A stretch of DNA of 64,000 bases, from IMG/VR virus record IMGVR_UViG_3300035181_001974; one strand, 5' to 3'. The first letter of the stretch is position 1. The number at the start of each line of letters is the position of its first letter. Shown here in pieces: positions 1,777 through 64,000 of the stretch. Under the pieces are notes generated by a model. The model was not told where the DNA came from. It did not search any database and saw only the letters and a list, made by a program, of their open reading frames with translations. Source of the stretch: a virus. Position numbers and translations under genes: made by a program.

Positions 1777-1778
1777 TC

Positions 1779-11277: not shown

Positions 11278-11280
11278 ACC

Positions 11281-11792: not shown

Positions 11793-12391
11793 TGGCATAT
11801 CACGGGTATCTGCCGATGATGAAGAACTTCATTCATCGGTTGCCTCATCCTCCGTTTGTCATCGAGATCGGTGTCGATCGTGGCGTCTCGTTGTTTCCTT
11901 TGGCAGCCTTCATGGCGCGGGCCAAGGAACAGTTCGTCATGGTCGGTGTGGATATTCTGGTCCAAGAGCAGGTCACCATCATGTCGAGGAACCTAGACTT
12001 GAGCCCAAACCAGCAACTGTTCCTCATTCAGGGCAACAGCCTCGATGTCTTGCCCAAGTTGGTCGCGCAAGGCATGAAGTTCGATCTAGTGCTGTTGGAC
12101 GGCGATCACAACTTCCACACTGTTCAACAGGAGCTGCTGCACCTCGAGGACCTGTGTCATCCACACTCTCTGGTCATCATTGACGATTACGAGGGTCGGT
12201 GGTCTGACAAGGACCTCTGGTATGCTGAGCGGCCTGATTACAAGGACGTCAAGGACGCGACTGCCAAGATCGAGACGGAGAAGCACGGCGTCAAGCCTGC
12301 CGTCGATGAGTTCCTTGCTGCGTATCCCGAGTGGAAGACGGCCCGTCCGCTGGCCGGCGAACCCATCCTGCTCACTCGAGTCAATATTTAG
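11789..12391 (+). CDS. Class I SAM-dependent methyltransferase (Methyltransf_24 / CmcI-TylF-like O-methyltransferase fold)
   Basis: VIEIGVDRGVS (motif I-like) and FDLVLLDGDHNFH (typical DGDH acidic motif). Confidence 0.6.
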   Translation: MMAYHGYLPMMKNFIHRLPHPPFVIEIGVDRGVSLFPLAAFMARAKEQFVMVGVDILVQEQVTIMSRNLDLSPNQQLFLIQGNSLDVLPKLVAQGMKFDLVLLDGDHNFHTVQQELLHLEDLCHPHSLVIIDDYEGRWSDKDLWYAERPDYKDVKDATAKIETEKHGVKPAVDEFLAAYPEWKTARPLAGEPILLTRVNI

Positions 12392-32100: not shown

Positions 32101-32213
32101 AAGACATCGACCTCAACCGCCTCCGCGGTCGGATCGTCGTGGTGCCGACGAGGGTCATCGAGTATATCGCGATCGACTTCATCATCACTAACAGCGGCGT
32201 CCAGTTCGTGTGA
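29199..32213 (+). CDS. Tail sheath protein, paralog 1 (1004 aa)
   Basis: N-terminus ...FRSPNFFEREIDISTP...GTANRGPAFVPV...FG matches the T4 gp18 N-terminal pattern (SPGIELKET...GKFQWGPAF...FG). C-terminus GQKTLQ...DRVNVRRLL...NETNNTQEDIDLNRLRG...V.P.R matches the sheath C-terminal domain. Confidence 0.85.
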   Translation: MPEQTFRSPNFFEREIDISTPTPVGPVGTPAGVVGTANRGPAFVPVTVGNFDQFIATFGNLDPKLFGPYAVNEFLKHRSALTYLRVLGAGANATQSDIANTLQTGRVLSAGMHLDGTPAVDDKLGRHNGAIQFLAAQHTLQSDEAYGIPMFTDNDSYSGSTVNLVRGMVMLPTTARLMVLDGNGTAVGAFNGSNVDSALMVGGKFKLAISSTLGNAFWNTDGNPGVRIFTASLNPTSPDYFAKILNTDPDKFVQEQHLVYADFPVDDELATATVVGVLSGSNNTSSTSGDKTLPMRKVFGAFDTRYRAPSTTYFISQPFGTTEYDLFKFEALDDGEYANNLFKIAITDLKASLDDSNPYGTFTVQIRDWNDTDTNPLVLEMFPGCSLDPMSDHYIGKLIGDRKVSYNFDTTLDSERRVVATGKYPNVSQYVRVVIADQVERALVPQKSLPFGFRGAVVPKTNDLLTDASPSSATARLAGVLGVGSASSLSGSIIPPVPFRTKVTKGDAPAGAAWLGQPGSTELTLSQFYWGVKFERNTLPLNPNLINDKNGLLESYTKFMGIPKLDALVSGSGADQLNNNKFTLAKVALSNGALTDITSSVQDHMKEAAYIRNGKLDLTNYTIKDPVLGPRVTLATLLAQGSASDFNRFSQFTKFITFMAGGWDGVNVLDRDARRMNDKASSFDAGGGAAVGYSAPGLGYNPTGTGQQNATVASYKTAIDIMTDPLVVNTNILALPGIRESFITEYALNKVRDYGLAYYVMDIPSYDDSSNRLYDDSAARPSIDQTANQFDARALDNNYAGTYYPDVFVDDATNRRRVKVPASVAAMGALAFNDRVAYPWFAPAGFNRAALDFVTNVSVRLNVPDRDRLYDSRINPIATFPRLGFVIYGQKTLQINKSALDRVNVRRLLLEVKRIIMGIAQKLVFEQNTPEVRNKFVADAILQLGLIQSQAGVEAFQVIMNETNNTQEDIDLNRLRGRIVVVPTRVIEYIAIDFIITNSGVQFV

Positions 32214-35300: not shown

Positions 35301-35384
35301 GGTAAGATCTATGTCCAGCCGACCAAGTCGATCGAGTTCGTCTCCTTGGACTTCGTGGTCACCAACAACATCACCCAGCAGTGA
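32337..35384 (+). CDS. Tail sheath protein, paralog 2 (1015 aa)
   Basis: Same N-terminal (ITAREIDLSGP...GTAVKGPAFIPV...FG) and C-terminal (GQKTLQ...DRVNVRRLL...TTQQDIENNTIRG...V.P) sheath signatures as paralog 1. Both genes are preceded by GATACTTAC. Confidence 0.85.
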   Translation: MAQLKFGSAGVTAREIDLSGPVTQEPVGVPAGVIGTAVKGPAFIPVTVGTIDDFYAKFGKTDGKKFGPLAVTEWMRKAQAVTYLRVLGAGDGRTRNDDGSVNGAGFTVGQQLPRASDGTLDGNPYANSGALGSPLGRAYFLGAFMSESAGSTIFSSAGIQGLGSTTPGADTAAVIVRGMLMAPSGVILRVSSSTAGNSSAPPSNLVATDGTAHGGLVGTVVLMDAGVAKSDFVLLLNGHQGTDPLYPNVITASFDMTSPNYFANVLNTDPYKIQQAGHFLYASWDVHPATAVVTGSGLVSALSGAGAATAPKPGAETAVFLTTASLARNVGSSTVPNYEAFTDRFSHAKSPWIISQKFGGSPSNLFRLHALDAGANVSTLYKISIENITPSTDPANKFGSFDLVLRDWNDRDAAQQPLEQFRGVNLDPSSDRYIAKIVGDAHVFFDFDRAEPAQKIVFDGNYPAQSNLVRVEVDLGVENGTVDPTALPMGFRGVEHLVTSGSAPLTSVTDGSLTAATYLKRAIEPPLPMRSNITAGSGAKVQVNPLLYWGVQFEHVASLATPNASTLKNASLKSFAKYFPDFSEINQNVSVGDNTGAVDTGAWGIIDADRFCNNLFTLENLQVVTASTTLADPTQWVSAQYVRGGAITANDANKTRAFKTDDLVQANRRFAKFSFLLQGGFDGILLFDKDSAEINNAAITADMNATNRGRDQGSNVRTYAKALEIMKNVVNTDIQLLAIPGIRHPIVTNAAADAVKERFDALYIMDIEQFDNTDTEVFTDSQLPSVTYTANSFANRAMDNNFAAAYFPDVVMPDPNTKTNVVAPPSVAVLGALALNDAVGHPWFAPAGVTRGALPTVLEARVQLSKPNMDALYDVAINPLVAFPGTAVGGTNPKGGVVVWGQKTLQAAASALDRVNVRRLLIEIRRQVRDISQTIIFEPNRAATLARFTAAVTPRLQRIQAQAGLERFKVIIDSSTTTQQDIENNTIRGKIYVQPTKSIEFVSLDFVVTNNITQQ

Positions 35385-39481: not shown

Positions 39482-40195
39482 ATGCCGAAGGACAAGTGGA
39501 CATCTGCTGGCGGTGTGGTTCTTGACAACATGGAAGAGCCTTATCGGGTCTTCGTTTGTAAACCCTCAAACAACTACGGCCCTTGGTGCTTTCCCAAGGG
39601 CCGAGTTGACCCCGGCGAGGGAATCGAGGCAACGGCACTCCGCGAGGTCCAAGAAGAGGCCGGAGTTCCGGCTAAGTTGCTGCCGAATGGCAACTTGGGA
39701 ACAGGTATTGGATCGTACAGCATCACGCACTACTTCATGATGGTCAGGACGGGCCCGGTGGGAGGTCACGACTACGAGATGGAGGAAGTGCGCGCTGTCA
39801 CGTTTGAAGAGGCTGAACAGCTCTTTTTGAGCGAAGGCAACTCTCGCGATATTGGGATCCTAAATCGCGCTCGGGACTACCTAGCTAAGCACGCCCCCAA
39901 ATCCGTGACGATTGAATCAAAGCAGCCGATCAACGAACTTCACACCAACCTGCTTGGGAAGATCTTCTTCACCACGCTGGGCGCCTGGCTTGTCGGTAAG
40001 GCTGTCAACACTAAGATCCGCGGGACCGTCGAACAAGTACGCGCGGTCAGCAATGCAATGCTGGCTAGCCGAAACTTTCAGGAAGAACTACGCCGCCCAG
40101 GCGCCACCGTCGAGAGCGTGATGCAGAAGCTCGGCGTCAAGCACATGACAGCGTCTGAGTTCGAGCGCATTCTCGGCGTGCCTTGGCCCCTCTGA
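39482..40195 (+). CDS. Nudix hydrolase
   Basis: Nudix box GRVDPGEGIEATALREVQEEAGV (G-x5-E-x7-REUxEExGU). Confidence 0.8.
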   Translation: MPKDKWTSAGGVVLDNMEEPYRVFVCKPSNNYGPWCFPKGRVDPGEGIEATALREVQEEAGVPAKLLPNGNLGTGIGSYSITHYFMMVRTGPVGGHDYEMEEVRAVTFEEAEQLFLSEGNSRDIGILNRARDYLAKHAPKSVTIESKQPINELHTNLLGKIFFTTLGAWLVGKAVNTKIRGTVEQVRAVSNAMLASRNFQEELRRPGATVESVMQKLGVKHMTASEFERILGVPWPL

Positions 40196-48939: not shown

Positions 48940-51900
48940 ATGACAGGTGATTTTGGTAGCCTCGAGAGTATCTTTCAAATGCTGCAGCCCGCAGATCTGT
49001 TGGCTGCGCAGAAGGTCAGTCTAGGTAGTGATGCCACGAACCGTAATTCTGTCCTACGTCAGCTGCAAAGGCTGATGCTCGAAGGTGGCAATGGTGGCGT
49101 CTATGATGCTGCCACGATGTTGGCCAAAATGCAAGAACTGTCGACCAAGTCGACGGGTGCGGAAGACCTTAAGTTGTTCAATCGGTTGATCAACTTTTAC
49201 ACGACTGCAGGCGCTGGCAAGCTGTCGGACGTGACATATCCGTACATCTATCAAGACGCTGACGGTAAGACGGTCAAGGATGACATCAGCGTTGACAAGA
49301 TCGTCGGATTTAAAGATCCCGACAAGATTCGCGGTGATCGCGATTTGAGCATCTTCGTCTCGCGGTCGCCCTTCATCACGCCAATGGCCCGTGATGCGCA
49401 GAAGGTCGAACTGTTCTTGAATTTCCTGCCGACGACGGTGATCTCGCGGTGCGTTCCGTACCTAGAGCTCGAGTTTGAGTTCGACCGCGGTATCAGTAAA
49501 GGCGACGACAAGGCCTTGACGTTGACCACCGCTGGCATGCTCAAGTTCCTATTGGGCGGCGACAAGCTACAGGCTGACACGCCTAACGCGGCAATGTTCG
49601 GCGCTAGGACGACGGTCGGCGAGGACAAAGACTCACAGCGCATGAAGTCGACGGCGGGAATGGAACTGTTCACAGCTCCTCAGACGTTGATCAACATGGA
49701 CCCGGTGACCGCCAAGCAAGGCAAGCGCTACGTTGACGTCATCGATCCAACACGGCCTTTTGCGTCCCTGGAGAACGTCACCATCAACGTGGCACCCACC
49801 GTGGGCATCATGTCCTACAAGAAGGCCACGGCGGTCATCAAGCTGCACGATCGCTCTAGGCTAGCTGAGTTGGCCGACCTGATTCAGCCCACGACCTACA
49901 CACGCACCACAGTGTGGCTGACGTACGGCTGGCGACATCCATACGAGCCAGCATCTGACACAAAGTCGACGCAGACGTACGCTGACTTCATCAACAACAA
50001 CATGTTGATCCGCGAGGCGTACGGCGTCATGAACGCAGGCTTTGCGTTCGACCAGGTCGGTCAAGTGACGATCACCTTGGAGTTGTTCACCAAGTCAGTC
50101 TCTGAGATGCGCGACATCAAGGTCACTGATGATCCAGAGGAAGGTTTCAAGCAGATCTCGCAGAAGATTGAGGACCTTGCTCGACAGATCGGTGAACTTC
50201 GCCGTGCCTACAACCTCAATCCACCTACTGGTCTCAACAAGGAGATCCGCGGGTTCATGGTCCTCGATACCGCTGAACAAGGCGGATTTCCAAATCTGAA
50301 GCCCAACGAGGTGTTGGACGCGATCACTGCGCTCGAGACGGCACTGCGAAACTCAGGCAAGATTGGCGCAGGTACATCAGATCCATTGATCGCCAAGCTG
50401 AAGCAACTGTACGCTTCAGCGGGCGGTGCCAATAAGGACGTCTTTGATTACCAGCAGCAGTACAAGAACATTGCGTCTTCATACGTAGCGCGGAAGTTTG
50501 AGGAACTGTCGAGGGGGCCAGATCCATTCTTGCCTTTCAGGGTCAAGGATGACAAGCGTAAGGCTGAGGCGGGACCCGATGATTCGCATCCGCTGCTGAA
50601 GGAGATGGAGACGTACCTGAAATCAGATCCCTTGAGCGACGATCTGAAGAAGGACGGCCTGAAGAAAGGCTACTGCTCGTTCGGCAAGCTCTTCAGCGTC
50701 TTTATGGGCCCGGCCTTGTTCACCGTCAAGAGCGTCGACGAATTTCAACTGTTGTTCTACACCTTGAACGACAAGTGCGGTCCGGCCTCAGCCATCAGCA
50801 TCGCCGAGTTTCCAATCGACCTTCCCGTCTTTTTGCGACAGTACAAGGAAGTTATCGAATCCCGTGGCACCACGACGATGACGATTGAACAGTTTGTCAA
50901 GTTGGCCATCGACGCTCAGCTGCAGGATCCTCGCGCCATCGGGTATGGATTCAAGTCAGCGCAGGTCTTCAAACCTTGGGATCCTAAAGGCCGCGATCCA
51001 GCATTCAAGGACAATGCAACGGCATCACAGTACGACCAGTTGATCTGGTCGGTCAACGGCCAGCGCGGCGCATTTCAGATGCCACAGATCGAGGTCTACA
51101 TTGAGACGACGCACGCCAAGGCGTCATCTAGTGATGCCACCAAGGACGTGCCGACTGACCTACTGCGTTACTACGAGGGTTCACCGTCAAAGCCGGGCTC
51201 AGCGGGTTTCTCAAAGATCAAGAAGATCGTCCGCGTTCACATCTATGACAAGACCGTTAACCCGTACCGCGCTGCCGGCGCGCTGCTGCGGGCCGACACG
51301 CCTTTGGGCTCTGCCTCGTCGATCTATGAAGTCGATGCAAATTCCTGGGTTAAGGCATACCACGGGGATGACGAGAAGACGGTCACCACGGCGGGACCGC
51401 TGAAGACCAAGATTGCATCTAAGACTGCGACAGCGAGCGACTCAAATGACAGCCCGATTCACGTGAAGCTGATCGAGGTCACTGAGGTCTCTAGCAACCA
51501 GAGCATCAAGCACCTGGTCTCCAAGATGGTGCCCAGCCTCGTCTATGGCATGAATGCCTCGGGAATCATCGATGCATCGGTTCAGACGAAGCACGATGCT
51601 AACCTGACCGCAGCGCAGCTGTTGGGCCTCAATTCGGGCAAGAAGGTCCAGGCGACTCCACAGGGCGGCGGCATGGGTGGACTGCCTTTGAAGGTGATTC
51701 CTGCAGCATTGACGCTGCGGACGATAGGTTGTCCGTTGTTGAACTACTCGCAACTGTTCTTTATTGACTTCAACACCGGCACCACGTTGGACAACATCTA
51801 CGGCATCTCTGGTTTGACGCACACTCTGGCACCGGGCAAGTTCGAATCGAGCCTAACAATGGCCTTCTATGATGCCTATGGCAAATATGAAGGCGCGCCG

Positions 51901-51948
51901 CAGCTCGTTGACAAGATTAAGTCACATCCCTTGGTCCTCGATAAGTGA
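48940..51948 (+). CDS. Large baseplate/tail protein (1002 aa)
   Basis: ATGA-coupled to the protein X-like gene. Large ORF. Confidence 0.5.
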   Translation: MTGDFGSLESIFQMLQPADLLAAQKVSLGSDATNRNSVLRQLQRLMLEGGNGGVYDAATMLAKMQELSTKSTGAEDLKLFNRLINFYTTAGAGKLSDVTYPYIYQDADGKTVKDDISVDKIVGFKDPDKIRGDRDLSIFVSRSPFITPMARDAQKVELFLNFLPTTVISRCVPYLELEFEFDRGISKGDDKALTLTTAGMLKFLLGGDKLQADTPNAAMFGARTTVGEDKDSQRMKSTAGMELFTAPQTLINMDPVTAKQGKRYVDVIDPTRPFASLENVTINVAPTVGIMSYKKATAVIKLHDRSRLAELADLIQPTTYTRTTVWLTYGWRHPYEPASDTKSTQTYADFINNNMLIREAYGVMNAGFAFDQVGQVTITLELFTKSVSEMRDIKVTDDPEEGFKQISQKIEDLARQIGELRRAYNLNPPTGLNKEIRGFMVLDTAEQGGFPNLKPNEVLDAITALETALRNSGKIGAGTSDPLIAKLKQLYASAGGANKDVFDYQQQYKNIASSYVARKFEELSRGPDPFLPFRVKDDKRKAEAGPDDSHPLLKEMETYLKSDPLSDDLKKDGLKKGYCSFGKLFSVFMGPALFTVKSVDEFQLLFYTLNDKCGPASAISIAEFPIDLPVFLRQYKEVIESRGTTTMTIEQFVKLAIDAQLQDPRAIGYGFKSAQVFKPWDPKGRDPAFKDNATASQYDQLIWSVNGQRGAFQMPQIEVYIETTHAKASSSDATKDVPTDLLRYYEGSPSKPGSAGFSKIKKIVRVHIYDKTVNPYRAAGALLRADTPLGSASSIYEVDANSWVKAYHGDDEKTVTTAGPLKTKIASKTATASDSNDSPIHVKLIEVTEVSSNQSIKHLVSKMVPSLVYGMNASGIIDASVQTKHDANLTAAQLLGLNSGKKVQATPQGGGMGGLPLKVIPAALTLRTIGCPLLNYSQLFFIDFNTGTTLDNIYGISGLTHTLAPGKFESSLTMAFYDAYGKYEGAPQLVDKIKSHPLVLDK

Positions 51949-51980: not shown

Positions 51981-53207
51981 TTGCTCGTGACAGAACCTTT
52001 TTGCATTGACTCGCGGTTGATGGGCACGGAACGTCACCTGTACGTCGACACGGGTTACCGCTGGGTCGACGATGTGCCTTTGGGCGTCTGGCACCTGTCG
52101 GGCCAGGTGAAGCTGCGTTCTGACAGGTGCCTGGACACTGTGATGCGTCTAGCGGGCAAGGAGATTTCCTCTCGACCACCCGAGAGATTCATCAATGCAA
52201 TGAACCTGTTGATGTCGGGTTCTAACGTGCAGCCGCCGTGGTCACAGGTGATGCCAGAAAGGGAACACCGCGGCCTCGTAAAAAGCCTCATAAATGAGGC
52301 CACTGTTGCCTTGGACACCCTATCACGAGATTATTACGTGAACACGTGGGTTCCCCAATCGGCCGTCCTCAGGTCGTTGCAACCTGCACGTGTTGACAAG
52401 GCTCGGTACCTAGAGCTGCGGGCGTCCGCGGGAAACAATGCTAAGGTGATTGAGAGCTTTCAACCTGACAGCGACGGCATGGCAACCATCGTTGACTATG
52501 ATCGCTTCGGAACACGCACTGGGCGCTTGACGACCGCAAGCGGGCCCGCGATCCTTAGCTTGAAGCGAGAGTTCCGCGACATGGTAGTACCCGTCGAGGA
52601 AGGTGGTGCCATTGCCTACGTTGACTTCGCGGCATTGGAGGCCCGTGTCCTGCTGTACGAGGCCGGTGGTCGTTGCGAAGACGCTGACATGTACACGTTC
52701 ATTTCCCGTGAGTTGTTTGCTGGGACCGCCTCACGGAACGCCATCAAGCAGGCCGTTATCTCTGAGCTCTACGGATCTGGCAAGCATTCATTGGGTGAGG
52801 TGCTCGGGATCGAAGGCAAGGAACTCAACGACTTCGTTGGCAAGGTCAAGCGATTCTTTCGTACCAAGGAACTGTTGAAGCGTGTCAAGGACGAGTTCAT
52901 CAAGACAGGCCACGTCACCAATCGCTATGGCAGGTCGCTGTTGATCGAGGAACCGCTTGATCACATCCTCATCAATACGTATGCCCAGTCGACCGGTGTT
53001 GACGTTAGCCTCCTCGGGTTTTCAGAGCTCGTCAACCAGTTCTCGGGATTGCCCGGCGTCAGGCCCATCTTTGTGCTGCACGATGCGCTACTGCTCGATG
53101 TGGCGCCTGATTGCATTGACATCGTCAAATCAATTGACAAGGTGCGAGTTCCGGGCTACGTCAATTATTTTCCATTGAAGTGCGAGTTCATTACTTGTAC
53201 ACGGTGA
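51981..53207 (+). CDS. Family A DNA polymerase, polymerase domain only (408 aa, no 3'-5' exonuclease domain)
   Basis: TGRLTTASGPAILSL matches the pre-motif-A signature TGRLSS.PNLQN. DFAALEARVL is motif A. RNAIKQAVISELYG is motif B. VLHDALLL is motif C with Ala in place of the usual Glu. Confidence 0.75.
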   Translation: MLVTEPFCIDSRLMGTERHLYVDTGYRWVDDVPLGVWHLSGQVKLRSDRCLDTVMRLAGKEISSRPPERFINAMNLLMSGSNVQPPWSQVMPEREHRGLVKSLINEATVALDTLSRDYYVNTWVPQSAVLRSLQPARVDKARYLELRASAGNNAKVIESFQPDSDGMATIVDYDRFGTRTGRLTTASGPAILSLKREFRDMVVPVEEGGAIAYVDFAALEARVLLYEAGGRCEDADMYTFISRELFAGTASRNAIKQAVISELYGSGKHSLGEVLGIEGKELNDFVGKVKRFFRTKELLKRVKDEFIKTGHVTNRYGRSLLIEEPLDHILINTYAQSTGVDVSLLGFSELVNQFSGLPGVRPIFVLHDALLLDVAPDCIDIVKSIDKVRVPGYVNYFPLKCEFITCTR

Positions 53208-53229: not shown

Positions 53230-53817
53230 ATGTCGCTGACAGCAGAAGAGATTGAGAAGAGCTTCAACAAGTACCGCGCATTGTGCGAAAAGCTCGGCCC
53301 GCGCTCCACTGATGCCCTAGCCTTGGTTGACGGCCTGGGTGAGCGCCTAGCACTGTGTCCTGCCTCGGGTAAGAAGGATTATCACAACGCCTTTCCGGGC
53401 GGGTTGGTGGACCATTCGTTGCGCGTCCTTGGCAATGCCATGACGTATGTGAAGTCGATGGGGTGGACGGTCCCGAAGGACTCGCTCATCATCAGCTGCC
53501 TTTTCCACGATCTGGGCAAGGTCGGCGACCATGAGAAGGACTACTACGTCCTTGCCGAAGACTGGCAGGCGAAGCGCGGTGAGCTCTATTCGTACAACCG
53601 CGAGATCGATCACATGTCGGTGCCTCATCGCGGCGTCTTCCTCTGCAATCACTACGGTCTGAAGTTGACGCGGGATGAGACGCTGGCCATCCTCTTGAAC
53701 GACGGTTGGGTCGTCGAAGAGAACAAACAGTACTGCCTCAAGGAACCGTTGCTGGCTCACGTTGTCATGACCGCAGACTACGTCTCGACGATGCAGGAGA
53801 AGGGTCGCTTTCCCTGA
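53230..53817 (+). CDS. HD-domain phosphohydrolase
   Basis: H..FPGGLVDHSL ... LFHDLGK (HD motif). Confidence 0.65.
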   Translation: MSLTAEEIEKSFNKYRALCEKLGPRSTDALALVDGLGERLALCPASGKKDYHNAFPGGLVDHSLRVLGNAMTYVKSMGWTVPKDSLIISCLFHDLGKVGDHEKDYYVLAEDWQAKRGELYSYNREIDHMSVPHRGVFLCNHYGLKLTRDETLAILLNDGWVVEENKQYCLKEPLLAHVVMTADYVSTMQEKGRFP

Positions 53818-53876
53818 AAAGTGACCCGCTGCGTCGCTGAGTTCAACAAATCCGGCTCGTGGTCATACTTATTAGT

Positions 53877-54119
53877 ATGGGCAAGACATTGCTCGTGCGG
53901 TATGTTAGGATGGTCCTCGAGTCGGCCAGGGATGCTCGCGTTCCAAACCAGCTCATTGAACCGGACACGGGATCGGAAGACGGAAAGAAGCGTGATGAGG
54001 TTGAAGACGTCAATGAGTTTTCGGGTGTTGGAGCCGTCGCTGGGTACACCGCGCCGCTGGGTGCGAACCCTGACGCCATGGGTCGCAGGAAGAACGCCGG
54101 CAAAAAGCGCCGGAAGTGA
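53877..54119 (+). CDS. Hypothetical small basic protein
   Basis: Charged ORF. The alternative overlapping frame 53821..54192 is Ser/Arg-rich and was rejected. Confidence 0.3.
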   Translation: MGKTLLVRYVRMVLESARDARVPNQLIEPDTGSEDGKKRDEVEDVNEFSGVGAVAGYTAPLGANPDAMGRRKNAGKKRRK

Positions 54120-54275: not shown

Positions 54276-55178
54276 ATGGCAGTAGATCTCGAGGCGATTC
54301 GTCGCCGCATGGCAGAACTCAATGGCACGAAGAAGACGTCGTCGGTCCAACTCTGGAAGCCGGGCGTCGGTGAGTACAGGATCCGTTGTCTTCCATGGAA
54401 GAACAACTCTTCAGAGAATCCGTTCATGGAGCGTTGGTTCTACTACATCGGCACCAACGCCGGCATTCTGTCTCCCAAGCAGTTCAACAAGCCCGATCCG
54501 ATTGACGATCTGATCAAGAAGCTCTTCAGCAGCGGTAAGCCTGACGACAGGCTCTTGGCAAAGAAGTTGCTCCCAAAGATGCGTGCCTATGCTCCGGTCA
54601 TCGTTCGCGGTCAGGAAGACAAGGGCGTGATGGTTTGGAGCTTCGGCAAGATCGTCTATCAGCAGCTACTGGGTTTTTTCCTCGATGAGGACTATGGCGA
54701 CATCCTGGACCCGAACGAAGGGTTCGACCTCAAGGTCGTTATCTCCCAGGCGCCTGGCAAGCAGTTCCAGGACACCGCCGTCTCTTGCAAGCCGAAGGCC
54801 AGCAAGCTGCATGATGATTCGAAGCAGGCGCAGTCCTGGCTCGACGCAGTCCCCAACCTTGATGACATGTATCGCCTGAAGTCCAAGGAAGAGATCGAGT
54901 CGATCCTTAGCACCTGGCTCTCGGGCGGCGAGAGCTCCTCGGGTGACGAGGGCACTCAGCGTGGTTCTGCCGCTCCTAAGGACCAGCTCGACGAGCTGGT
55001 GAAGGACGTGCGCGGCGCCAAAGCCCATGATGAACCTGCGGCTCCCAAGGCTGAGGCAGTGAAGCCGGCGAAGGCTTCGCCTCGCAAGCCCAAGGTTGAT
55101 GATGACGATGCTTCGGCCGCACCGGTGAAGAAGCAGACGCTTGACGAGGCGTTCGACGAGTTGATGGACAACGAATAA
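54276..55178 (+). CDS. Single-stranded DNA-binding protein (T4 gp32-like)
   Basis: MAELNGTKKTSS...IRCLPWKNN..ENPF parallels T4 gp32 AKLNGNKGFSS...IRFLPSKNDEQAPF. Acidic C-terminal tail DEAFDELMDNE. Confidence 0.75.
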   Translation: MAVDLEAIRRRMAELNGTKKTSSVQLWKPGVGEYRIRCLPWKNNSSENPFMERWFYYIGTNAGILSPKQFNKPDPIDDLIKKLFSSGKPDDRLLAKKLLPKMRAYAPVIVRGQEDKGVMVWSFGKIVYQQLLGFFLDEDYGDILDPNEGFDLKVVISQAPGKQFQDTAVSCKPKASKLHDDSKQAQSWLDAVPNLDDMYRLKSKEEIESILSTWLSGGESSSGDEGTQRGSAAPKDQLDELVKDVRGAKAHDEPAAPKAEAVKPAKASPRKPKVDDDDASAAPVKKQTLDEAFDELMDNE

Positions 55179-55188: not shown

Positions 55189-56433
55189 ATGGCGAGGGCA
55201 GCTAAGGCAGCCCCCAACGTCGATTCCGAGAAGACGTCTAAGAAGAAGCCGGGGGATGAGATCGATGATCTCACCTCCGACCTCATCAAGGCGCTCAACA
55301 AGGAGTTCGGCGTCCGGGTGGCGTACAATCTGAGTGAGGACGAAGCACCGACGGTTGTTAAGCGGTGGATCGACACAGGGTCGATCCAACTGAACTACGC
55401 GATTCGAAATGCTCTCGGGGGCGGTTATCCCGAGGGACGCATCATCGAGATCTCTGGCCTGCCTTCATCGGGCAAGTCACACCTTGCATACCATGCAGCA
55501 GCAGTCGTCCAGTCGATGGGCGGTCTCGTTGTTTACGTAGACACTGAGAACGCGACGCCGCTTGATAAGCTGCGGCACATGGGCATCAACGTGGCGAAGA
55601 AATTCGTCTATTGCGATACCCACTGCACCGAGGAGGTCTTCGCCATCGTGGAGTCCACGATCAACAAGGCGAAGCAGATCGTCGACAAAAACATCCCGAT
55701 CCTCGTGATTTGGGACTCCGTCGCTGCCACCTCGCCGAAGGCAGAGCTCGACGGCGACTACGACCAGAACACGGTCGGTCTGCAGGCCCGCGTCATCAGC
55801 AAGGGTATGCGCAAGATCACTGGCGTCATCGGTCAGAATAACGTGACGTTCATCTGCATCAACCAGCTCCGCGAAAAGATCGGGGTGATGCACGGTGATC
55901 CGATGACGACCCCGGGTGGCAAGGCCATTCCGTTCCACGCCTCGCTGCGGATTCGATTGGGCTCAGGCAGCCCCATCAAGGACAAGGCAGGCAACATCAT
56001 CGGCATTCACGTGACCGTCTCTATCAAGAAGAACAAGGTCGCGGCGCCTTTCCGAAAGTGTGAGTTCGACATTCACTTCGGCAAAGGCATTGTGGAACAC
56101 ACCTTCATCTTCGATGAGTGTCGCTCATGGTGCGATAAGAACAAGGTCTTTGCCGATTACACGGACTCCAAGGGGAACGTGAAGAAGGTGGAGATCAAGA
56201 TTTCAGGTACCCAGGCCTGGAAGGAACTGCTCGTCAGCGATGCTGAGACGGGTGAAGTCCTGATCGAGAAGAAGTTCTACAAGGACGACTTCGGTGATTT
56301 GATGAAGGACGAGGTCTTCAAGCCTTTCATCGACAAGGTCATTGACGCAGCATTGACCGTTCACGGTGGCGAGGTGGCGGGAGAAGGCGAAACGCCTGAC
56401 TCTGATGACGATGAGGTCGTGGGCGATGACTGA
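55189..56433 (+). CDS. RecA-family recombinase (UvsX-like)
   Basis: Walker A GLPSSGKSH, Walker B ILVIWDSVAA, and RecA-like core blocks. Confidence 0.75.
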   Translation: MARAAKAAPNVDSEKTSKKKPGDEIDDLTSDLIKALNKEFGVRVAYNLSEDEAPTVVKRWIDTGSIQLNYAIRNALGGGYPEGRIIEISGLPSSGKSHLAYHAAAVVQSMGGLVVYVDTENATPLDKLRHMGINVAKKFVYCDTHCTEEVFAIVESTINKAKQIVDKNIPILVIWDSVAATSPKAELDGDYDQNTVGLQARVISKGMRKITGVIGQNNVTFICINQLREKIGVMHGDPMTTPGGKAIPFHASLRIRLGSGSPIKDKAGNIIGIHVTVSIKKNKVAAPFRKCEFDIHFGKGIVEHTFIFDECRSWCDKNKVFADYTDSKGNVKKVEIKISGTQAWKELLVSDAETGEVLIEKKFYKDDFGDLMKDEVFKPFIDKVIDAALTVHGGEVAGEGETPDSDDDEVVGDD

Positions 56434-56875
56434 CAAGGACTACTTCGTCACCAAGGTCACCATCAAGTTTCGCGGTCCCAATGCGCCGGCCTATCAAACG
56501 GCCGGCGCGGCGGGCTGTGACATCATTGCTGACGAGGACAAGGAAGTCAGGGCGCATGGCCAGGCACTGATCTCGACGGGATTGTTCCTCGAAATTCCGC
56601 CTGGGTACGAGGGACAGGTTCGATCGCGGTCAGGTCTGGCTGCAAAGCATGGAATCTCCGTGTTGAACTCACCAGGAACCATTGATTCTGACTACCGAGG
56701 CGAGGTGAAGGTCATCCTGCGCAATTCTTCGAACACTCACTTCTATGTTCGAAAAGGCGACAGGATTGCCCAATTGGTGATTGCGCCAGTTATTCAGGCG
56801 GTCTTCGAGGGCTCGGAAGAGCTATCGTTGACTGATCGCGGACAGGGCGGCTTCGGTAGCACGGGGAGGCAGTGA
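56426..56875 (+). CDS. dut: dUTP diphosphatase
   Basis: GAAGCDI, RSGLAAKHG, GTIDSDYRGE, GDRIAQLV and RGQGGFGSTG match dUTPase motifs 1-5. The start overlaps the recombinase stop by 8 nt. Confidence 0.9.
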   Translation: MTDKDYFVTKVTIKFRGPNAPAYQTAGAAGCDIIADEDKEVRAHGQALISTGLFLEIPPGYEGQVRSRSGLAAKHGISVLNSPGTIDSDYRGEVKVILRNSSNTHFYVRKGDRIAQLVIAPVIQAVFEGSEELSLTDRGQGGFGSTGRQ

Positions 56876-57872: not shown

Positions 57873-58850
57873 ATGCAAAATAACGTACAAAGACCTGTCC
57901 TTATTGTGGATAGTATGAACCTCTTCGTACGTAGCTACAGTGCGTACCCCTCGATGAGCGCCCATGGCTACCAAATGGGCGGTTGCATCGGATTCCTGAA
58001 GACGCTTCAACGTCTCGTCAACGAGATCGGACCTTCGGCGGTCTACATCGCTTGGGAGGGCGGAGGCTCACAGAGGCGTCGAGCCCTCTATTCCGAGTAC
58101 AAGCTCAACCGAAAACCCGGGAAGCTAAACCGCTTCTATGAGGACGACATCCCAGACACAGAAGAGAATCGTCAGCACCAGATCATCGCGTTGCTCGGCA
58201 TGCTGAAGTGTTGCCCGGTTTGTCAGATCTACGTTTCGGACTGTGAGGGTGACGATGTCATCGCCTACCTAGCTCGTGGTCCCTTCAAGGCTGTCCCCAA
58301 GGTCATCGCTTCCAGCGACAAGGACATGTACCAGTTGCTAGACGAGAACACTCGAGTCTACAATTTGCACAAGAAGACCTACATCGTCCCGGAAGACGTT
58401 GTCAAGGACTTCCGAGTGCAGCCTCACAACTTCGCCTTGGCCAAGGCACTGTGTGGTGACCCGAGCGACAACATTCCGGGCGTCAAAGGTTTAGGCTTCA
58501 AGACTGTCGCTCGCGTGCTGCCTTTCTTGTCTCTAGAAGAGGAAGTGTTGCTCGAGGACGTGCTCAAGTTTTGTCACTCTCATGCTGACGAGAGCGTGCT
58601 CTATCAACGTATCGTTGATCATGAGGAAGAGGTCAAGCGTAACTGGAAGTTGGTGTTCCTCGATGGTTCAATGCTATCAGCGCACCAGGCTTCGAAGGTT
58701 GACCACCTGATCAGTACATTTAGACCCCGCATCGATAGGATGGGGCTGATCAAGGCCCTTATCAAAGAGGGCGTCAATGACTTTGATGCAGAAGGTTTCT
58801 TCTACGCGTTCAACGGCATCGACAACCTAGGCAACAAATCAGAGGAATGA
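57873..58850 (+). CDS. 5'-3' exonuclease / RNase H (FEN family, T4 rnh-like)
   Basis: LIVDSMNLFVRSY, SSDKDMYQLL and GDPSDNIPGVKGLGFKTVARVL (helix-3-turn-helix region). Confidence 0.8.
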   Translation: MQNNVQRPVLIVDSMNLFVRSYSAYPSMSAHGYQMGGCIGFLKTLQRLVNEIGPSAVYIAWEGGGSQRRRALYSEYKLNRKPGKLNRFYEDDIPDTEENRQHQIIALLGMLKCCPVCQIYVSDCEGDDVIAYLARGPFKAVPKVIASSDKDMYQLLDENTRVYNLHKKTYIVPEDVVKDFRVQPHNFALAKALCGDPSDNIPGVKGLGFKTVARVLPFLSLEEEVLLEDVLKFCHSHADESVLYQRIVDHEEEVKRNWKLVFLDGSMLSAHQASKVDHLISTFRPRIDRMGLIKALIKEGVNDFDAEGFFYAFNGIDNLGNKSEE

Positions 58851-60310
58851 TGAGCGACGACAGGATCACCACCAAGGCAACATTCGGAACGTACGGAAAG
58901 TCATTTCAGGAGAAGTTCGTCCAGGCCTTGTTGGTCGACAGGCAGTTTGCCGAGCAGATGCTCGAGGTTTTTGACAATGGGTATCTAGAACTGAAGTACC
59001 TCGCCTTCTTGGCTGATCGTTATTTCGGTTACGCAAAGAAATACAAGGTCTTTCCGACCCTGCAACTACTCATCACCATCATCCGTGATGAGTTGAAGGT
59101 GGGCACAGACACGGTGCTCCGTGATCAGATCATCGACTACCTGCAGCGTATGCGGGCTAACCCTGACCCGGGTGACCTCCAGTACGTCAAGGAAAAGTCG
59201 CTGGACTTCTGTCGCAAGCAGGCCCTCAAGGCCGCGCTGGAGAGTGCGGTCGATGACATGCAGGCCGAGAAATACGAGTCAATTGTCGAAGGCATCAAGA
59301 AGGCAGTGATGGTGGGCACTGCCCCACAATTGGGCCATGATTTCTTTAATGACTTCGAGGCGCGCTTCACCCAACTTCAACGCAACTGCGTGGCCACGGG
59401 ACTAGACGAGCTCGACAAGAAGGACATTCTCAACGGTGGCCTGGGTAGCGGCGAGATCGGCGTCATCGTTGCTCCCACCGGCGTGGGCAAGAGCCACATG
59501 TTGACGTTCCTGGGCGCCAACGCACTGCGCAATCAGGTCGACGTTCTTCACTACACGTTTGAGCTCTCTGAGGCGGCCGTCGGCCGCCGCTATGATTCAA
59601 ACCTCTGTGACATCGACTCTAACCACGTCATTGACAACAAAGAGAAAGTCCTCGACAACTACAAAGGCATGAAGTTGGGTCGCCTCATCATCAAGGAGTT
59701 CCCGACCAACACGGCCAGTATCTACACCCTTCGCAATCACATCGAGCGGTTGGACGTCAAGGGCTTCAGGCCTGGCCTCATCATCATCGACTACGCTGAC
59801 ATCATGCGATCGACGCGGCAGTACGATTCGCTGCGTCATGAGTTGAAGCTGATCTACGAGGAACTTCGCGGTTTCTCAGCGGAGAAGAGCATCCCAATCT
59901 GGACCGCATCGCAGTCCAACAAGGAAGGCTCCAACAGCGACATTGTTGACCTTGGCAACATGAGTGAGGCCTATGGCAAGGCGATGGTCGCTGACGTGGT
60001 GTTGAGCATCTCGAGACGCGCTCACGAGAAGGCTACGGGATTTGGTCGCCTCTACGTCGCCAAGAACCGTGCGGGCCGTGATGGCCTCGTCTATTCGGTA
60101 AAAATCGATACCTCGAAAAGCAAGTTCGAGATCGTTGGCAACGCCGGTTCGTTGGACGCAGCCGTCAAGGAAGACGAGGATGAAGTGAAGCGCGCCCTTC
60201 GCGTGAAGTGGAAGGAGCTTCGCAATGACCCCCTGCTCGGCGACAAGATGAAAAAGTCCGGCTTTGGCGACGGAGGGAGCGAAGGTTCGGGCAGTTCAGG
60301 GCTGAGCTGA
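58847..60310 (+). CDS. DnaB-family replicative helicase (T4 gp41-like)
   Basis: Walker A VIVAPTGVGKSH, Walker B LIIIDYADIM, and H3 motif TASQSNKEG. Confidence 0.8.
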   Translation: MMSDDRITTKATFGTYGKSFQEKFVQALLVDRQFAEQMLEVFDNGYLELKYLAFLADRYFGYAKKYKVFPTLQLLITIIRDELKVGTDTVLRDQIIDYLQRMRANPDPGDLQYVKEKSLDFCRKQALKAALESAVDDMQAEKYESIVEGIKKAVMVGTAPQLGHDFFNDFEARFTQLQRNCVATGLDELDKKDILNGGLGSGEIGVIVAPTGVGKSHMLTFLGANALRNQVDVLHYTFELSEAAVGRRYDSNLCDIDSNHVIDNKEKVLDNYKGMKLGRLIIKEFPTNTASIYTLRNHIERLDVKGFRPGLIIIDYADIMRSTRQYDSLRHELKLIYEELRGFSAEKSIPIWTASQSNKEGSNSDIVDLGNMSEAYGKAMVADVVLSISRRAHEKATGFGRLYVAKNRAGRDGLVYSVKIDTSKSKFEIVGNAGSLDAAVKEDEDEVKRALRVKWKELRNDPLLGDKMKKSGFGDGGSEGSGSSGLS

Positions 60311-60392: not shown

Positions 60393-63300
60393 ATGAGGAC
60401 TTTCACGTATCAGCACGTTCGCGATGCGTCGATCGAGTATTTTCGTGGAGATGAGCTGGCGGGTGAGGTCTTTGCAGGCAAGTATGCGCTGCAGGATCTT
60501 AAGGGAAACATTTACGAGGCTACCCCTGACGACATGCACCGGCGCGAGGCGCGGGAGTTTGCTCGCATCGAGACACGGTATCCGAACGCCATGTCAGAGC
60601 AAGAGATCTATGAGCTCTTCTCTTCATGGGACGTGGTCCCACAGGGATCACCCATGTCGGCAGTTGGCAATCCGTACCAGTTTCAGTCGTTGAGCAACTG
60701 CTTCGTTATCGAGAGCCCTTATGATTCCTATGGCGGCATCCTAAAGACTGACCAGGAACAGGCGCAGATCATGAAGCGTCGCGGCGGCGTGGGTTTTGAC
60801 ATCTCGACGATTCGCCCGAAGGGTATCGAGACTGCCAACGCTGCCCGCACCACCGATGGCCTGGGCATCTTCATGGAGCGCTACAGTAATACCTGTCGCG
60901 AGGTGGCCCAAGGCGGCCGCCGAGGCGCGCTGATGTTGACAGTGTCGGTGCACCACCCGGAGATTCGCACCTTCATCAACATCAAGAAGAACAAGAAGAA
61001 GGTCACGGGCGCCAACATATCGATTCGTTTGACAGACGAGTTCATGAACGCCGTTAAGGCGGGTACGCAGGTTCAACTGCGGTTTCCAGTTGACAAAGAC
61101 GTTCCTCACATCGTCGAGGAACAGGTAGACGCTCGCCAACTGTGGCATGAGATCATCCAGGCAGCATGGGAATCTGCTGAACCCGGTTTGCTGTTCTGGG
61201 ACACTGTCCTGCGCCGCGGGCCAGCAGATGCCTACGCTGCGTTTGGTTACGGCTCGACGAGCACCAACCCGTGCATTACGGGAGAAACTCTTATCGCCGT
61301 CGCTGACGGAAGGGGTTACGTGCCCATCAAGCAGCTAGCTGACGAAGGCAAGGACTTGCCGGTCTATTGTTACCAGGAGGCCACAGGAAAAATTGGCATC
61401 CGCCTGATGAGGAATCCTAGGCTTACCGGTAAGGGAGTTCCTGTGTTCAAGGTGACCATTGAGGGAGGTCACACTTTTAAGGCCACCGGAAACCACACGA
61501 TGATCATGCGTGACGGATCCCGGAAGCGAGTCGACGAGCTGTTGAATGGCGATCAACTTTGGGTTGCTCATAAAGTCGCTGGCAAGTTTGCTGAATATTC
61601 GGCGAAGATGAGCGAGAGCGTCGGTGGGGCCAACAATCCGCGTGCCTATGACAACGTCACCAATGATGACATCCGCCAACACGTGCTGGGGTTGACCCGG
61701 TCGCTCGGCCGCCGCGTTTCACTGAACGAGTGGTACGCTTACGCTAAACAACGGTCGCTGCCGATGTCGTTTTCGGCCTGGCGTCGCAGCGAGCTGGGAA
61801 GCTTCTACGACCTGTCGTGCTGGGCGGCTCGAGAGGTCGACATCTCAACACCAGAACTCGACACGAGGATTCAACGTACGTACGTTCAGGCCCTTGAAGA
61901 AGGTTATGATGTCGATGTGATCGACGGTGAGCTGTACGTCAACCGGACGTGTGAGTGGTGCAACGAAATGTTCGCGCTGCCGTACTGCCGACGTGAACAG
62001 GCATTCTGCTCACATTCGTGTTCCAACCTCTACGCAAACAGGAAGGCCAATAAGAACGTTGCACGGGCAGAGAACCTGAAGAAGCTTCACGCTGATCGTG
62101 CAGAAGTAACGCGAAAACAGCAACTTGACGCCTTTACCTCACTTAGGTTTACGTTGGGTAGAGAGCCCTTGGGAAGAGAGTGGGTTGCCGAATGTCGACG
62201 CTTGGATGTGCCGGCACGAATCGGTACCAAAAACGGTTTTGCGTCCTGGTCTGCCCTGAAAGAGGCCGCGGCATTGCACAATCACCGCGTGATCAGCGTT
62301 GAACCCGCGGGTGTCGAAGACGTGTACAACGGCACTGTCGACGGAGAGCACACACTGTGCATGTATGTTGGTGACGAAAAGCTTGTACAGTTCCAAAATC
62401 AAGCAAACGTAATAATCGCTAGCGAACAATGCGGTGAGATTACGCTGTCGCCTTACGATTCATGTCGTTTGCTTCTCGTCAACCTCGCTCGCTTCGTCAG
62501 AGATCCATTTACTCCTCACGCCAGTTTTGACTTCGTGCGCTTCAACGATGTTGTTAAGAAGGCGCAGAAGTTGATGGACGATCTCGTCGACCTGGAGCTC
62601 GAGGCCATTGATCGAATCATGCAGAAGATCGAGAATGACCCTGAGCCCGCTGACGTGAAGCGGCCCGAAATCGAGCTATGGACCAAGATCCGCAACACTG
62701 CAATCAATGGTCGTCGCACCGGCTTGGGCATCACTGCCTTGGGCGATGCCTTGGCCTACCTCAACATCAAGTACGGTTCGGACGAGTCTATCAACGTCAC
62801 TGAGCAGATCTATAAGGGCCTCGCGTTGGGTGCCTACCGCTCGACTGTTGAGATGGCACGTGATCGTGGTCCCTTCCCGATTTTTTCCCACAAGGTGGAA
62901 GAGGGACATCCTTTCATTGAACAAGTGATGGACGCTGATCATGAGCTCCGTGATCAGTATCGTCTCTATGGACGTCGCAACATCGCCTTGACGACGACAG
63001 CGCCAGCTGGCTCTGTCTCCATCTTGACCCAGACTACATCTGGCTGCGAGCCCGCCTTCCTCCTGAGCTACAAGCGAAGGAAGAAGATCAATCCGAATGA
63101 CTTGGATGCTCGTGTCGACTTCGTTGACGCCATGGGCGACAAGTGGCAGGAGTACACGGTCTATCACCACGGATTCAAGAAGTGGATGGACGTCACTGGT
63201 GAGACCGACGTGGAAAAGTCGCCTTACTTCGGTGCCACGTCGAATGACATCGACTGGGTCAAGAAGATCGACGTCCAGGCCGCAGCTCAGAAGTGGGTCT

Positions 63301-64000
63301 GTCACTCCATCTCGAACACCACCAACATTCCGAGTGACACGCCGGTCGATGTGGTGAAGCAGATCTACATGCGCGGTTGGGAGACTGGTTGCAAGGGCGT
63401 CACCATCTATCGAGATGGTTCTCGTGATGGCGTCCTCATCAAGGACGAGAAGAAGACAGCGGCGGACCAACCCAAGAATATCGCCGAGTCTCACTCTCTG
63501 AAGCGTCCGAAGGAGCTGGAGTGTGACATTCACCACGTTTCGATCAAGGGTGAGAAGTACCTGGTCTTCGTGGGCCTCATGAACGGCAAGCCTTACGAGC
63601 TGTTCGCCGGACTGTCAGAACAGGTTGAAGTCCCGAGGAAGGCCAAGAAGGGCGTCCTCATCAAGAACGGCAAGAACGCTGACGGGGTGTCCACGTACAA
63701 CCTCCGCGTCGACCTGGACGACAATTTCCTTCTCTATAAGGACATTGTCAACCTCTTCGACAATCCGTTGTACGGAGCGCACACTCGAACCTTGTCGATG
63801 ACACTTCGACATGGAGTACCAGTTCACCTTGTCGTCGAGCAGCTCCGCAAGGACAAGCACAGCGATCTGTTCTCGTTCTCGACGGTTATCGCGCGAACGT
63901 TGAGCAAGCACTACATCGTGGATGGGACCAAGGCAACGCAGGAAAAGTGTTGCCCGATCTGTGCCTCGACGTCGCTCGCCTATCAGCAGGGATGCGTTAC
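60393..64000 (+). CDS. Ribonucleotide reductase, class II (NrdJ-like), interrupted by an intein; 3'-truncated at the window end
   Basis: N-terminal region ...GEVFAGKYALQD.... Active-site motif TNP|C...|CGEITLSPYDSC(R/N)L is split by a 386-aa insertion. The frame stays open to base 64000. Confidence 0.75.
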   Translation, partial: MRTFTYQHVRDASIEYFRGDELAGEVFAGKYALQDLKGNIYEATPDDMHRREAREFARIETRYPNAMSEQEIYELFSSWDVVPQGSPMSAVGNPYQFQSLSNCFVIESPYDSYGGILKTDQEQAQIMKRRGGVGFDISTIRPKGIETANAARTTDGLGIFMERYSNTCREVAQGGRRGALMLTVSVHHPEIRTFINIKKNKKKVTGANISIRLTDEFMNAVKAGTQVQLRFPVDKDVPHIVEEQVDARQLWHEIIQAAWESAEPGLLFWDTVLRRGPADAYAAFGYGSTSTNPCITGETLIAVADGRGYVPIKQLADEGKDLPVYCYQEATGKIGIRLMRNPRLTGKGVPVFKVTIEGGHTFKATGNHTMIMRDGSRKRVDELLNGDQLWVAHKVAGKFAEYSAKMSESVGGANNPRAYDNVTNDDIRQHVLGLTRSLGRRVSLNEWYAYAKQRSLPMSFSAWRRSELGSFYDLSCWAAREVDISTPELDTRIQRTYVQALEEGYDVDVIDGELYVNRTCEWCNEMFALPYCRREQAFCSHSCSNLYANRKANKNVARAENLKKLHADRAEVTRKQQLDAFTSLRFTLGREPLGREWVAECRRLDVPARIGTKNGFASWSALKEAAALHNHRVISVEPAGVEDVYNGTVDGEHTLCMYVGDEKLVQFQNQANVIIASEQCGEITLSPYDSCRLLLVNLARFVRDPFTPHASFDFVRFNDVVKKAQKLMDDLVDLELEAIDRIMQKIENDPEPADVKRPEIELWTKIRNTAINGRRTGLGITALGDALAYLNIKYGSDESINVTEQIYKGLALGAYRSTVEMARDRGPFPIFSHKVEEGHPFIEQVMDADHELRDQYRLYGRRNIALTTTAPAGSVSILTQTTSGCEPAFLLSYKRRKKINPNDLDARVDFVDAMGDKWQEYTVYHHGFKKWMDVTGETDVEKSPYFGATSNDIDWVKKIDVQAAAQKWVCHSISNTTNIPSDTPVDVVKQIYMRGWETGCKGVTIYRDGSRDGVLIKDEKKTAADQPKNIAESHSLKRPKELECDIHHVSIKGEKYLVFVGLMNGKPYELFAGLSEQVEVPRKAKKGVLIKNGKNADGVSTYNLRVDLDDNFLLYKDIVNLFDNPLYGAHTRTLSMTLRHGVPVHLVVEQLRKDKHSDLFSFSTVIARTLSKHYIVDGTKATQEKCCPICASTSLAYQQGCV
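61272..62429 (+). mobile_element. Intein (386 aa) inserted at the NPC/GEI radical-Cys motif of the RNR
   Basis: Block A CITGETLIAVADG. Block B GHTFKATGNHTMIM. Block F ...VEDVYNGTVDGEHTL.... A Cys-rich CEWC...C..C...C central domain. Ends ...IIASEQ before the extein Cys, i.e. a C-terminal Gln variant. Confidence 0.7.

Follow-up and report, generated by a model that had tools for sequence, protein, structure and literature searches.

The 2023 classification of family-A DNA polymerases (PolA) recognized only two situations in which the exonuclease is missing from the polymerase chain, the S-SBP1-like split into separate exonuclease and polymerase proteins and CCPol (Czernecki et al., NAR 2023, PMC10201439). 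A divergent PolA, divPolA1, was subsequently described in 14 phages with genomes of 155–190 kb. Each of these phages has, in addition, a regular polymerase of family A, B, or C that is encoded close to chaperonin genes; the 441-amino acid (aa) protein of Flavobacterium phage immuto is one of these divPolA1 proteins (DNA polymerase swapping in Caudoviricetes bacteriophages, Virol J 2024, PMC11348598). In the divPolA1 model the palm is intact, the thumb is truncated, and the exonuclease domain is inactivated; a role in replication was argued from genomic context (PMC11348598). HoLaMa, an engineered exonuclease-free sub-fragment of Klenow, is reported to fold and was characterized catalytically (PMC6457538). 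The gene considered here encodes a stand-alone family-A DNA polymerase domain and is located at 51981..53207 on the + strand of the window, which is the whole 64,000-nucleotide (nt) stretch that was analyzed from the virus record IMGVR_UViG_3300035181_001974. The gene heads a block of replication genes, and its product has neither an exonuclease domain nor the canonical Glu of PolA motif C.

A sequence-only reading of this DNA had described a 408-aa open reading frame (ORF) and quoted four motif strings from its translation, and the ORF and all four strings were located at these coordinates. The pre-motif A or TGR region, YDRFGTRTGRLTTASGPAILSLK (52497..52565, +), features a Y..RF.T.TGR signature that is invariant in an alignment of 20 family sequences. 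Motif A, VDFAALEARVLLYE (52620..52661, +), contains the catalytic Asp that is equivalent to Klenow D705 and a steric-gate Glu that is equivalent to E710. The DFAALEAR segment of this motif aligns to DYSQIELR(VL) of Bst Pol I, and its D, A, L, and E residues are invariant in the 20-sequence alignment, as are the R, K, Y, and G residues of motif B, RNAIKQAVISELYG (52734..52775, +). Position B3 in motif B, which is F762 in Klenow, is Ile. The YAQSTGVDV segment (52980..53006, +) is the counterpart of the Klenow segment PMQGTAAD that contains Q849. Motif C, VLHDALLLDV (53073..53102, +), retains the His and the catalytic Asp equivalent to D882, and features an Ala at the position of Glu883.

Profile searches support the assignment of the protein to family A. 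The Pfam DNA_pol_A profile (PF00476) matches with 40.7 bits, above the cutoff of 34.3, over profile positions 110–352 of 381, and the PHROG_17 "DNA polymerase" profile matches at 3.6e-17. A profile of 20 family members retrieved Bst, Taq, and Klenow Pol I chains from the PDB at E ~1e-9, and the resulting alignment places R..K...I...YG on R..K...F...YG, QSTGVD on QGSAAD, and LHDAL on VHDEL. The absence of the catalytic Asp residues from such an alignment had been named beforehand as evidence that would count against a polymerase; both metal-binding Asp residues, of motifs A and C, are present and are in register with Bst Pol I, as are the TGR and the R..K...Y.G residues of motif B. The structure model of the polymerase has high confidence and features the Klenow-type palm, thumb, and fingers fold. 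The TGR Arg is residue 169 of 395 in the shorter of the two gene calls discussed below, and nearly the entire chain aligns to polymerase domains; there is no N-terminal exonuclease remnant, since this position of the Arg leaves approximately the length of the N-terminus of a polymerase domain. The protein is therefore predicted, from its sequence and model, to be a compact family-A enzyme that consists of palm, short thumb, and fingers, that lacks an exonuclease of its own, and that is presumably catalytically active.

The 408 codons are counted from a TTG codon at 51981. Public gene calls place the start at ATG 52020, giving a protein of 395 aa (P0001), which drops 13 residues including the family-conserved "CID"; other members that are listed at 390–395 aa may be cut in the same way. 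Because the family alignment shows that a "CID..LGT" segment, which is kept family-wide, sits 5' of ATG 52020, the longer ORF, starting at TTG 51981 or at GTG 51987, is probably the right one.

The polymerase belongs to a very large phage family that is invisible to annotation. A HMMER search of 1.84 billion representatives with the polymerase profile, at E<=1e-30 and with clustering at 50% identity, determined that at least 542 clusters belong to the family. The best 150 representatives are single-domain proteins, the full-length ones match end to end and are ~370–430 aa long, and none features an extra N-terminal domain, which bears out the earlier description of a stand-alone domain without an exonuclease. 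A word-indexed search listed 120 relatives with 44–69% identity, nearly all of which are 390–420 aa long, and the source names seen for the family in public records are all "hypothetical protein". No family member was found in the bacterial or archaeal genomes of GTDB, so there is no sign of prophages, and megablast and tblastn searches of the INPHARED collection of GenBank phages found no near-identical known phage and no member of the family. The same polymerase sequence is present on six independent contigs, the longest of which is 309,481 bp.

Residue counts over 168 non-redundant family members revealed that TGRL is kept in 163 and that the L-H-D-x core of motif C is kept in 164. The missing Glu of motif C, which the sequence-only reading had also pointed out, is a family-wide feature (LHDA in 145 members, LHDG in 11, LHDS in 4, LHDE in 3, and LHDT in 1), and position B3 is Ile in 143 members and Leu in 24. 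This appears to be the pattern of an enzyme under selection, in which the family as a whole has lost only the Glu that comes after the catalytic Asp of motif C. The earlier suggestion of an inactivated domain is rejected on account of this retention of TGRL, L-H-D-x, and the motif B residues. A decayed and catalytically dead domain, or a sequencing or frameshift artifact, could be read from HDA in place of HDE and from public records that carry no functional annotation, but it is hardly credible given that the same architecture and catalytic residues recur in hundreds of divergent clusters, that six independent contigs encode exactly the same protein, and that the model has high confidence. 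A naturally minimal PolA of 400 aa may additionally serve as a practical enzyme scaffold.

A scan of IMG/VR identified 128 relatives, and 80 of these loci were read and their ORFs clustered. Where the contigs reach, the ~80 loci feature one fixed gene order, which is p1680, p1028, p1002, PolA, HD, SSB, RecA, dUTPase, FEN, DnaB, and RNR, the first three names denoting proteins of 1680, 1028, and 1002 aa. The related contigs are 200–370 kb long, the longest being 369 kb (IMGVR_UViG_3300005529_000001), and another large contig of the clade is 340 kb (3300036772_000425); 3300028654_000384, 3300016471_001002, and 3300035703_000010 are further large contigs of the clade. PolA is the conserved first gene of a replication-recombination operon, and this operon is shared by a large clade of huge phages that are uncultured and have T4-like virions. 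Searches for promoters and terminators at 51–58 kb of the window found none above the shuffled expectation.

The two flanks of the gene agree with the earlier description of tail genes upstream and an HD hydrolase downstream. The gene immediately upstream (48940..51948, +) encodes the conserved 1002-aa protein, the last of the tail and baseplate module, which has no Pfam, PHROG, NCBIfam, or PDB-profile match and which is conserved ahead of PolA in all related loci that extend to this point. It ends 33 nt before the polymerase ORF and is in a different frame, and the PDB profile search revealed no nuclease or polymerase similarity, so the statement that no exonuclease half lies upstream holds. 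A frameshift in, or fusion with, an upstream exonuclease was rejected, as the same architecture is found in all of the ~80 loci that reach upstream and in the best 150 representatives.

These observations also bear on the proposal that the polymerase has been split and that the gene for its classical DEDD 3'-5' exonuclease half is located in another part of the genome, with the split PolA of S-SBP1-like T7-type phages as the precedent. Separate exonuclease and polymerase PolA genes have been documented (PMC10201439), and most of the genome lies outside the region that was read. The known halves are, however, adjacent and result from a recent frameshift, whereas no DEDD gene adjoins PolA in the ~80 loci and the stand-alone form is ancient, being spread over hundreds of 50%-identity clusters. 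In the window, each ORF of at least 120 aa that was judged a likely gene was compared to Pfam, PHROGs, or both, and neither a second polymerase nor a DEDD exonuclease was found among these ORFs. A split polymerase is accordingly regarded as a very doubtful explanation.

The gene that follows the polymerase (53230..53817, +) is separated from it by a 22-nt spacer and encodes a 195-aa HD-domain protein that is a candidate 3'-5' exonuclease for single-stranded DNA. In 81 of 81 loci the first conserved gene downstream of PolA is HD, with a median spacer of 41 nt; the spacer is <=100 nt in 48 loci and >300 nt in 27. Several loci (L061 at 11205..12152, L040, L042, L075, and L077) have a GIY-YIG-like ORF of ~300 aa inserted between the two genes, which probably encodes a homing endonuclease and which stretches the spacer to 1–1.8 kb. 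In one locus (L006, 1950..4106, +; IMGVR_UViG_3300016474_001138) PolA, HD, and the small ORF that follows HD share one frame of 719 codons from which both stop codons are absent. This frame, the sole case among the ~80 loci, may reflect either a genuine fusion or an error of assembly.

Fold comparison of the predicted structure determined that the HD protein is structurally closest to YhaM. The structure of YhaM/Cbf1 (PDB 9h3f) is that of an HD-domain 3'-deoxyribonuclease that degrades single-stranded 3' overhangs of DNA, and its catalytic HD domain, which features an extended HD motif, corresponds to resolved residues 103–314 (NAR 2025, PMC12107432). The phage protein contains the catalytic domain with the YhaM fold and the H...HD...D metal ligands. 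It is shorter than YhaM, which has ~314 aa and an N-terminal OB domain, and it consists of the HD domain only, matching the catalytic part. An HD profile retrieved YhaM from the PDB at a marginal E of 0.05–0.08, with PA[AS]..H..F.GGL..H and HDLGKV shared beyond the generic HD motif. Assignments to DatZ, to a dNTPase, or to an Ap4A hydrolase were rejected because these matches are structurally much weaker than that to YhaM, and a DatZ-type dNTP triphosphohydrolase, as found in Z-genome phages, was rejected because a close DatZ similarity with a linked purZ was not found.

HD homologues are encoded by immuto, with 34% identity and at a distance of 77 kb from divPolA1, and by Streptococcus phage Dp-1, where the gene follows the clamp loader in the replication module. 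The Dp-1 context is suggestive of a linkage of HD to replication. No HD homologue was detectable in Mel-JY01, a Microcystis phage, and no PolA was found near the HD homologue of the Lak phage, the genetic code of which differs. Taken together, the HD protein is probably a replication-linked nuclease that would trim 3' ends. The earlier statement that there is no adjacent exonuclease is correct in that no DEDD gene adjoins the polymerase, but it may be functionally wrong, because the modeled fold of the downstream HD protein is closest to that of YhaM, a 3'-5' exonuclease acting on single-stranded DNA. The PolA-HD pairing is a testable candidate for 3'-end editing in trans by a fold that is not known to serve polymerases.

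The genes following HD complete the block. A small ORF of 80–86 aa (53859..54119, +), which is in the public gene calls and is conserved in the clade, is located between HD and SSB and features an FSGVG.AGYTAPLGA motif and a Lys/Glu-rich composition; it has no family match. The single-stranded DNA-binding protein (SSB; 54276..55178, +) was recognized by PHROGs only (phrog_1192, 2.1e-20) and is 39% identical to its Mel-JY01 homologue, which is unannotated there, and 36% identical to the immuto SSB. It is followed by a RecA-type recombinase (55189..56433, +; Pfam RecA, 214 bits) and a dUTPase (56366..56875, +; phrog_135, 4e-56). The called dUTPase ORF has a GTG start and overlaps the 3' end of RecA by 68 nt; since the PHROG match begins only at aa 30, the true start is probably further downstream than this GTG. 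A Pol I-type 5'-3' exonuclease or flap endonuclease (FEN) is encoded by a separate gene (57873..58850, +; 5_3_exonuc_N, 93.5 bits; 5_3_exonuc, 38.2 bits), and a DnaB-type replicative helicase (58847..60310, +; Pfam DnaB_C, 67 bits; phrog_19, 4.5e-63) follows. The ribonucleotide reductase (RNR) large subunit (60393..64000, +) contains an intein and leaves the window; in full it has 1213 aa. The full gene is present in a relative (L084, 3711..7352), in which the Intein_splicing match covers aa 305–653 and lies between two RNR barrel segments.

The regions 3' of RNR in the clade (L084, 8726..13628; L252, 12044..20232) encode ThyX, thymidylate kinase (Tmk), a second dUTPase-type gene, and an RlaP nucleotidyltransferase, as well as PNKP, NT5C, a phosphoribosyltransferase, an RNA ligase, and a metallophosphatase, and look like an RNA-repair and nucleotide-pool island.

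The sequence-only reading had considered the replisome to be T4-type and a family-B polymerase (PolB) to be expected. The virion genes are indeed T4-like (Gp23, gp19 tube, T4 baseplate protein, and S77 protease), but the recombinase is RecA, the FEN is Pol I-type, and the helicase is DnaB. Because these three are not T4-type, PolA fits the block; the replication genes are of generic bacterial types with which a PolA does not clash. The expectation of a PolB was nevertheless borne out in a relative, Mel-JY01, which has the same block and a PolB.

Two cultured phages, immuto and Mel-JY01, are among the best annotated matches of the capsid protein. The virion genes are related to those of divPolA1 phages, the major capsid protein being 43% identical over the matched stretches, with 71% of the query covered. 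The immuto record opens with the 441-aa protein, annotated as "DNA polymerase family A", and continues with two small genes and then SSB, RecA, FEN, DnaB, and RNR; across the ends of the record the sheath, tape measure, and hub genes precede this PolA. A second polymerase, a 777-aa regular PolA, is located beside GroES/EL 38 kb downstream. In Mel-JY01 a 408-aa "hypothetical protein" (WWT39333.1; L260, 8590..9816) heads the same gene block; it is clearly homologous to divPolA1, with a match to the divPolA1 profile at E 6e-34, and it matches the profile of the present family at E 4e-7. The second polymerase of Mel-JY01 is an 848-aa PolB that is located with the clamp loader 22 kb further on. The Mel-JY01 gene that is annotated as "DNA polymerase I" (346 aa) is the FEN or 5' nuclease.

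The preferred explanation, which is given about an even chance of being correct, is that the protein is an active Pol I-type accessory polymerase of the replisome and not the sole replicase. Acting at the fork or on recombination intermediates, PolA would elongate RNA primers, or the invading 3' ends that the RecA-type recombinase produces, and would fill gaps together with FEN; this separately encoded nuclease would remove primers, and the adjacent HD protein would trim 3' ends. A second, regular polymerase that is presumably encoded elsewhere in the ~309-kb genome would carry out high-fidelity bulk synthesis, as in the two cultured relatives. An accessory role is favored because immuto, Mel-JY01, and all 14 divPolA1 genomes carry a regular polymerase. 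The error rate of exonuclease-deficient PolAs is roughly 1e-5 to 1e-4 per base, which is too high for the sole replication of 3e5 bp and likewise favors an accessory role.

Several results weigh against an accessory role. No second polymerase was found in the 52 kb upstream in the window or as far as +37 kb downstream in the relatives, a span that covers ~30% of the ~309-kb genome. A downstream walk to +37 kb, using RlaP, a methylase ORF, and exact DNA strings, revealed only nucleotide-metabolism, RNA-repair, and auxiliary genes, and the PolB motifs YGDTDS and SLYPS were not found over 84 loci. A GroEL-anchored search for a regular polymerase listed 80 loci, all of which are immuto-like and do not overlap with the contigs of the present clade. 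The matches listed with the Mel-JY01 PolB as the query are from Mel-JY01-like phages only, a result that is uninformative and not a negative. Additionally, motif C lacks the canonical PolA Glu, so the catalytic rate could be low, and the strict place of PolA at the head of the operon, beside the helicase and SSB, is just as compatible with a main replicase.

That PolA is the main and perhaps only replicase, with the YhaM-like HD protein proofreading in trans and replacing the DEDD exonuclease domain, is unlikely but is the main alternative. It draws on the strict PolA-HD pairing and on the lack of any other polymerase from -52 to +37 kb, a span of ~30% of the genome. A regular polymerase is, however, present in the relatives that share the block, the PolA-HD pairing is not obligatory in the wider group, with the immuto HD gene distant from divPolA1 and none detectable in Mel-JY01, and the OB fold of YhaM is absent from the HD protein. 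The stronger proposal, in which phages of 200–370 kb replicate by a two-gene polymerase, consisting of PolA and an HD-fold 3' exonuclease that acts in trans as a non-homologous replacement of the DEDD domain, and in which there is no other DNA polymerase in the genome, is quite improbable.

The active site and the nucleotide-pool genes have a bearing on another possibility, which is that PolA is a lesion-bypass polymerase or one that tolerates modified nucleotides, its relaxed active site being suited to an unusual nucleotide pool. The polymerase lacks proofreading, has Ile or Leu at B3 in place of Phe or Tyr, and has lost the motif C Glu, and position B3 modulates nucleotide discrimination (PMC10201439). 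Two dUTPase-type genes, ThyX, Tmk, NT5C, and a phosphoribosyltransferase are located nearby. Such a role is rather unlikely.

A primase-polymerase function like that of CCPol in staphylococcal SCCmec elements, in which PolA would make primers for the DnaB helicase of the operon, was also considered. In CCPol the exonuclease of a PolA is truncated, priming takes place together with a small partner protein, and the enzyme cooperates with a helicase (PMC10201439); in the present phages a small conserved ORF directly follows HD, and neither the window nor the region to +37 kb revealed a DnaG-type primase. Immuto has a separate DnaG primase, so the clade probably has one too. No similarity to the MP partner protein or to Cch2 was found, with partner homologues sought by Pfam only, and CCPol chains are absent among the PDB sequence and fold matches listed. 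Priming by this polymerase is therefore judged very improbable.

The first 52 kb of the window is a T4-like virion module. The head genes encode a prohead protease (S77), peptide deformylase, the Gp23 capsid protein, a virion protein, and a head-tail adaptor, and the tail genes encode two sheath paralogues of ~1000 aa, the gp19 tube, the T4 baseplate protein, and a NUDIX gene; the 1680-, 1028-, and 1002-aa proteins are the three large unannotated proteins of the module. The sheath paralogues are arranged in tandem (29199..32213 and 32337..35384, +), match PHROG_23 "tail sheath" in their C-terminal thirds only, and have N-terminal regions of ~680 aa with no match. Two metabolic genes are found at unusual sites, the peptide deformylase (1773..2276, +) within the head module and the NUDIX hydrolase (39482..40195, +) between the baseplate protein and the tape-measure-like 1680-aa protein. 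The head genes also include a weak DUF559 or restriction endonuclease-like ORF (10247..10675, +) and a class I methyltransferase (11789..12391, +; Methyltransf_24, 52 bits).

Compared to Klenow-type Pol I and T7 gp5 (PF00476), the present polymerase lacks both a 3'-5' exonuclease domain and a fused 5' nuclease, features Ala in place of Glu883 and Ile at B3, and is only 15–20% identical. Its thumb appears short next to that of Klenow-type Pol I, as judged from the secondary structure of the model. The enzyme resembles the S-SBP1-like split PolA and CCPol in being a natural polymerase domain that exists as a separate protein without proofreading. In S-SBP1-like T7-type phages, however, a DEDD exonuclease is adjacent and the split stems from a recent frameshift, and neither feature is present here. 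CCPol of SCCmec retains three exonuclease helices, binds the MP protein, and is a primase, none of which is seen here, and the helicase of the present operon is DnaB-type, whereas that of the SCCmec system is Cch2. Neither of these two situations fits the present polymerase.

The present polymerase also resembles divPolA1. Both proteins are encoded by the first gene after the tail module, at the head of SSB, RecA, FEN, DnaB, and RNR, and both lack a working exonuclease and the Glu of motif C, which is YDA in divPolA1 and HDA here. There are also clear differences. DivPolA1 keeps a degenerate N-terminal exonuclease remnant and features a His and TSR, whereas the present family has no such remnant and features the steric-gate Glu and the canonical TGR. 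The present polymerase is shorter, with 395–408 aa compared to 441 aa in immuto, and the genomes are larger, with related contigs of 200–370 kb. In the present clade PolA is followed by the YhaM-like HD gene, which is 77 kb away from divPolA1 in immuto and was not detected in Mel-JY01. A HMMER search with the family profile did not match the immuto protein, and a BFVD fold search for a divPolA1 counterpart returned generic PolAs only. An hhalign comparison of the family to immuto-type divPolA1 alone was weak (E 3.8e-4, probability 36%), and the comparison to divPolA1 together with Mel-JY01 gave a probability of 92% and an E of 6e-7 over 270 columns. The present family is approximately equally close to ordinary PolAs and to divPolA1, and because all PolAs are homologous, the profile homology indicates a sister relation and not membership.

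The present family is thus best regarded as the positional counterpart and sister of divPolA1, and not as a strict member, because it has no exonuclease remnant, has the canonical TGR and steric-gate Glu, and is about as close to ordinary PolAs. A divergent PolA without proofreading that heads the same operon was already described in 2024, so the present family is not categorically new. What is added is a sister family from huge phages that is much larger and carries no annotation, that has a more cleanly minimal architecture, and in which a YhaM-like HD gene is a new and strictly conserved partner. The comparison raises the question of why two polymerases are kept and what the role of the constant one is, and it extends to huge phages the idea developed for divPolA1, in which a constant PolA without proofreading stays at the head of the operon and the regular polymerase is exchanged between genomes for one of another family (A, B, or C).

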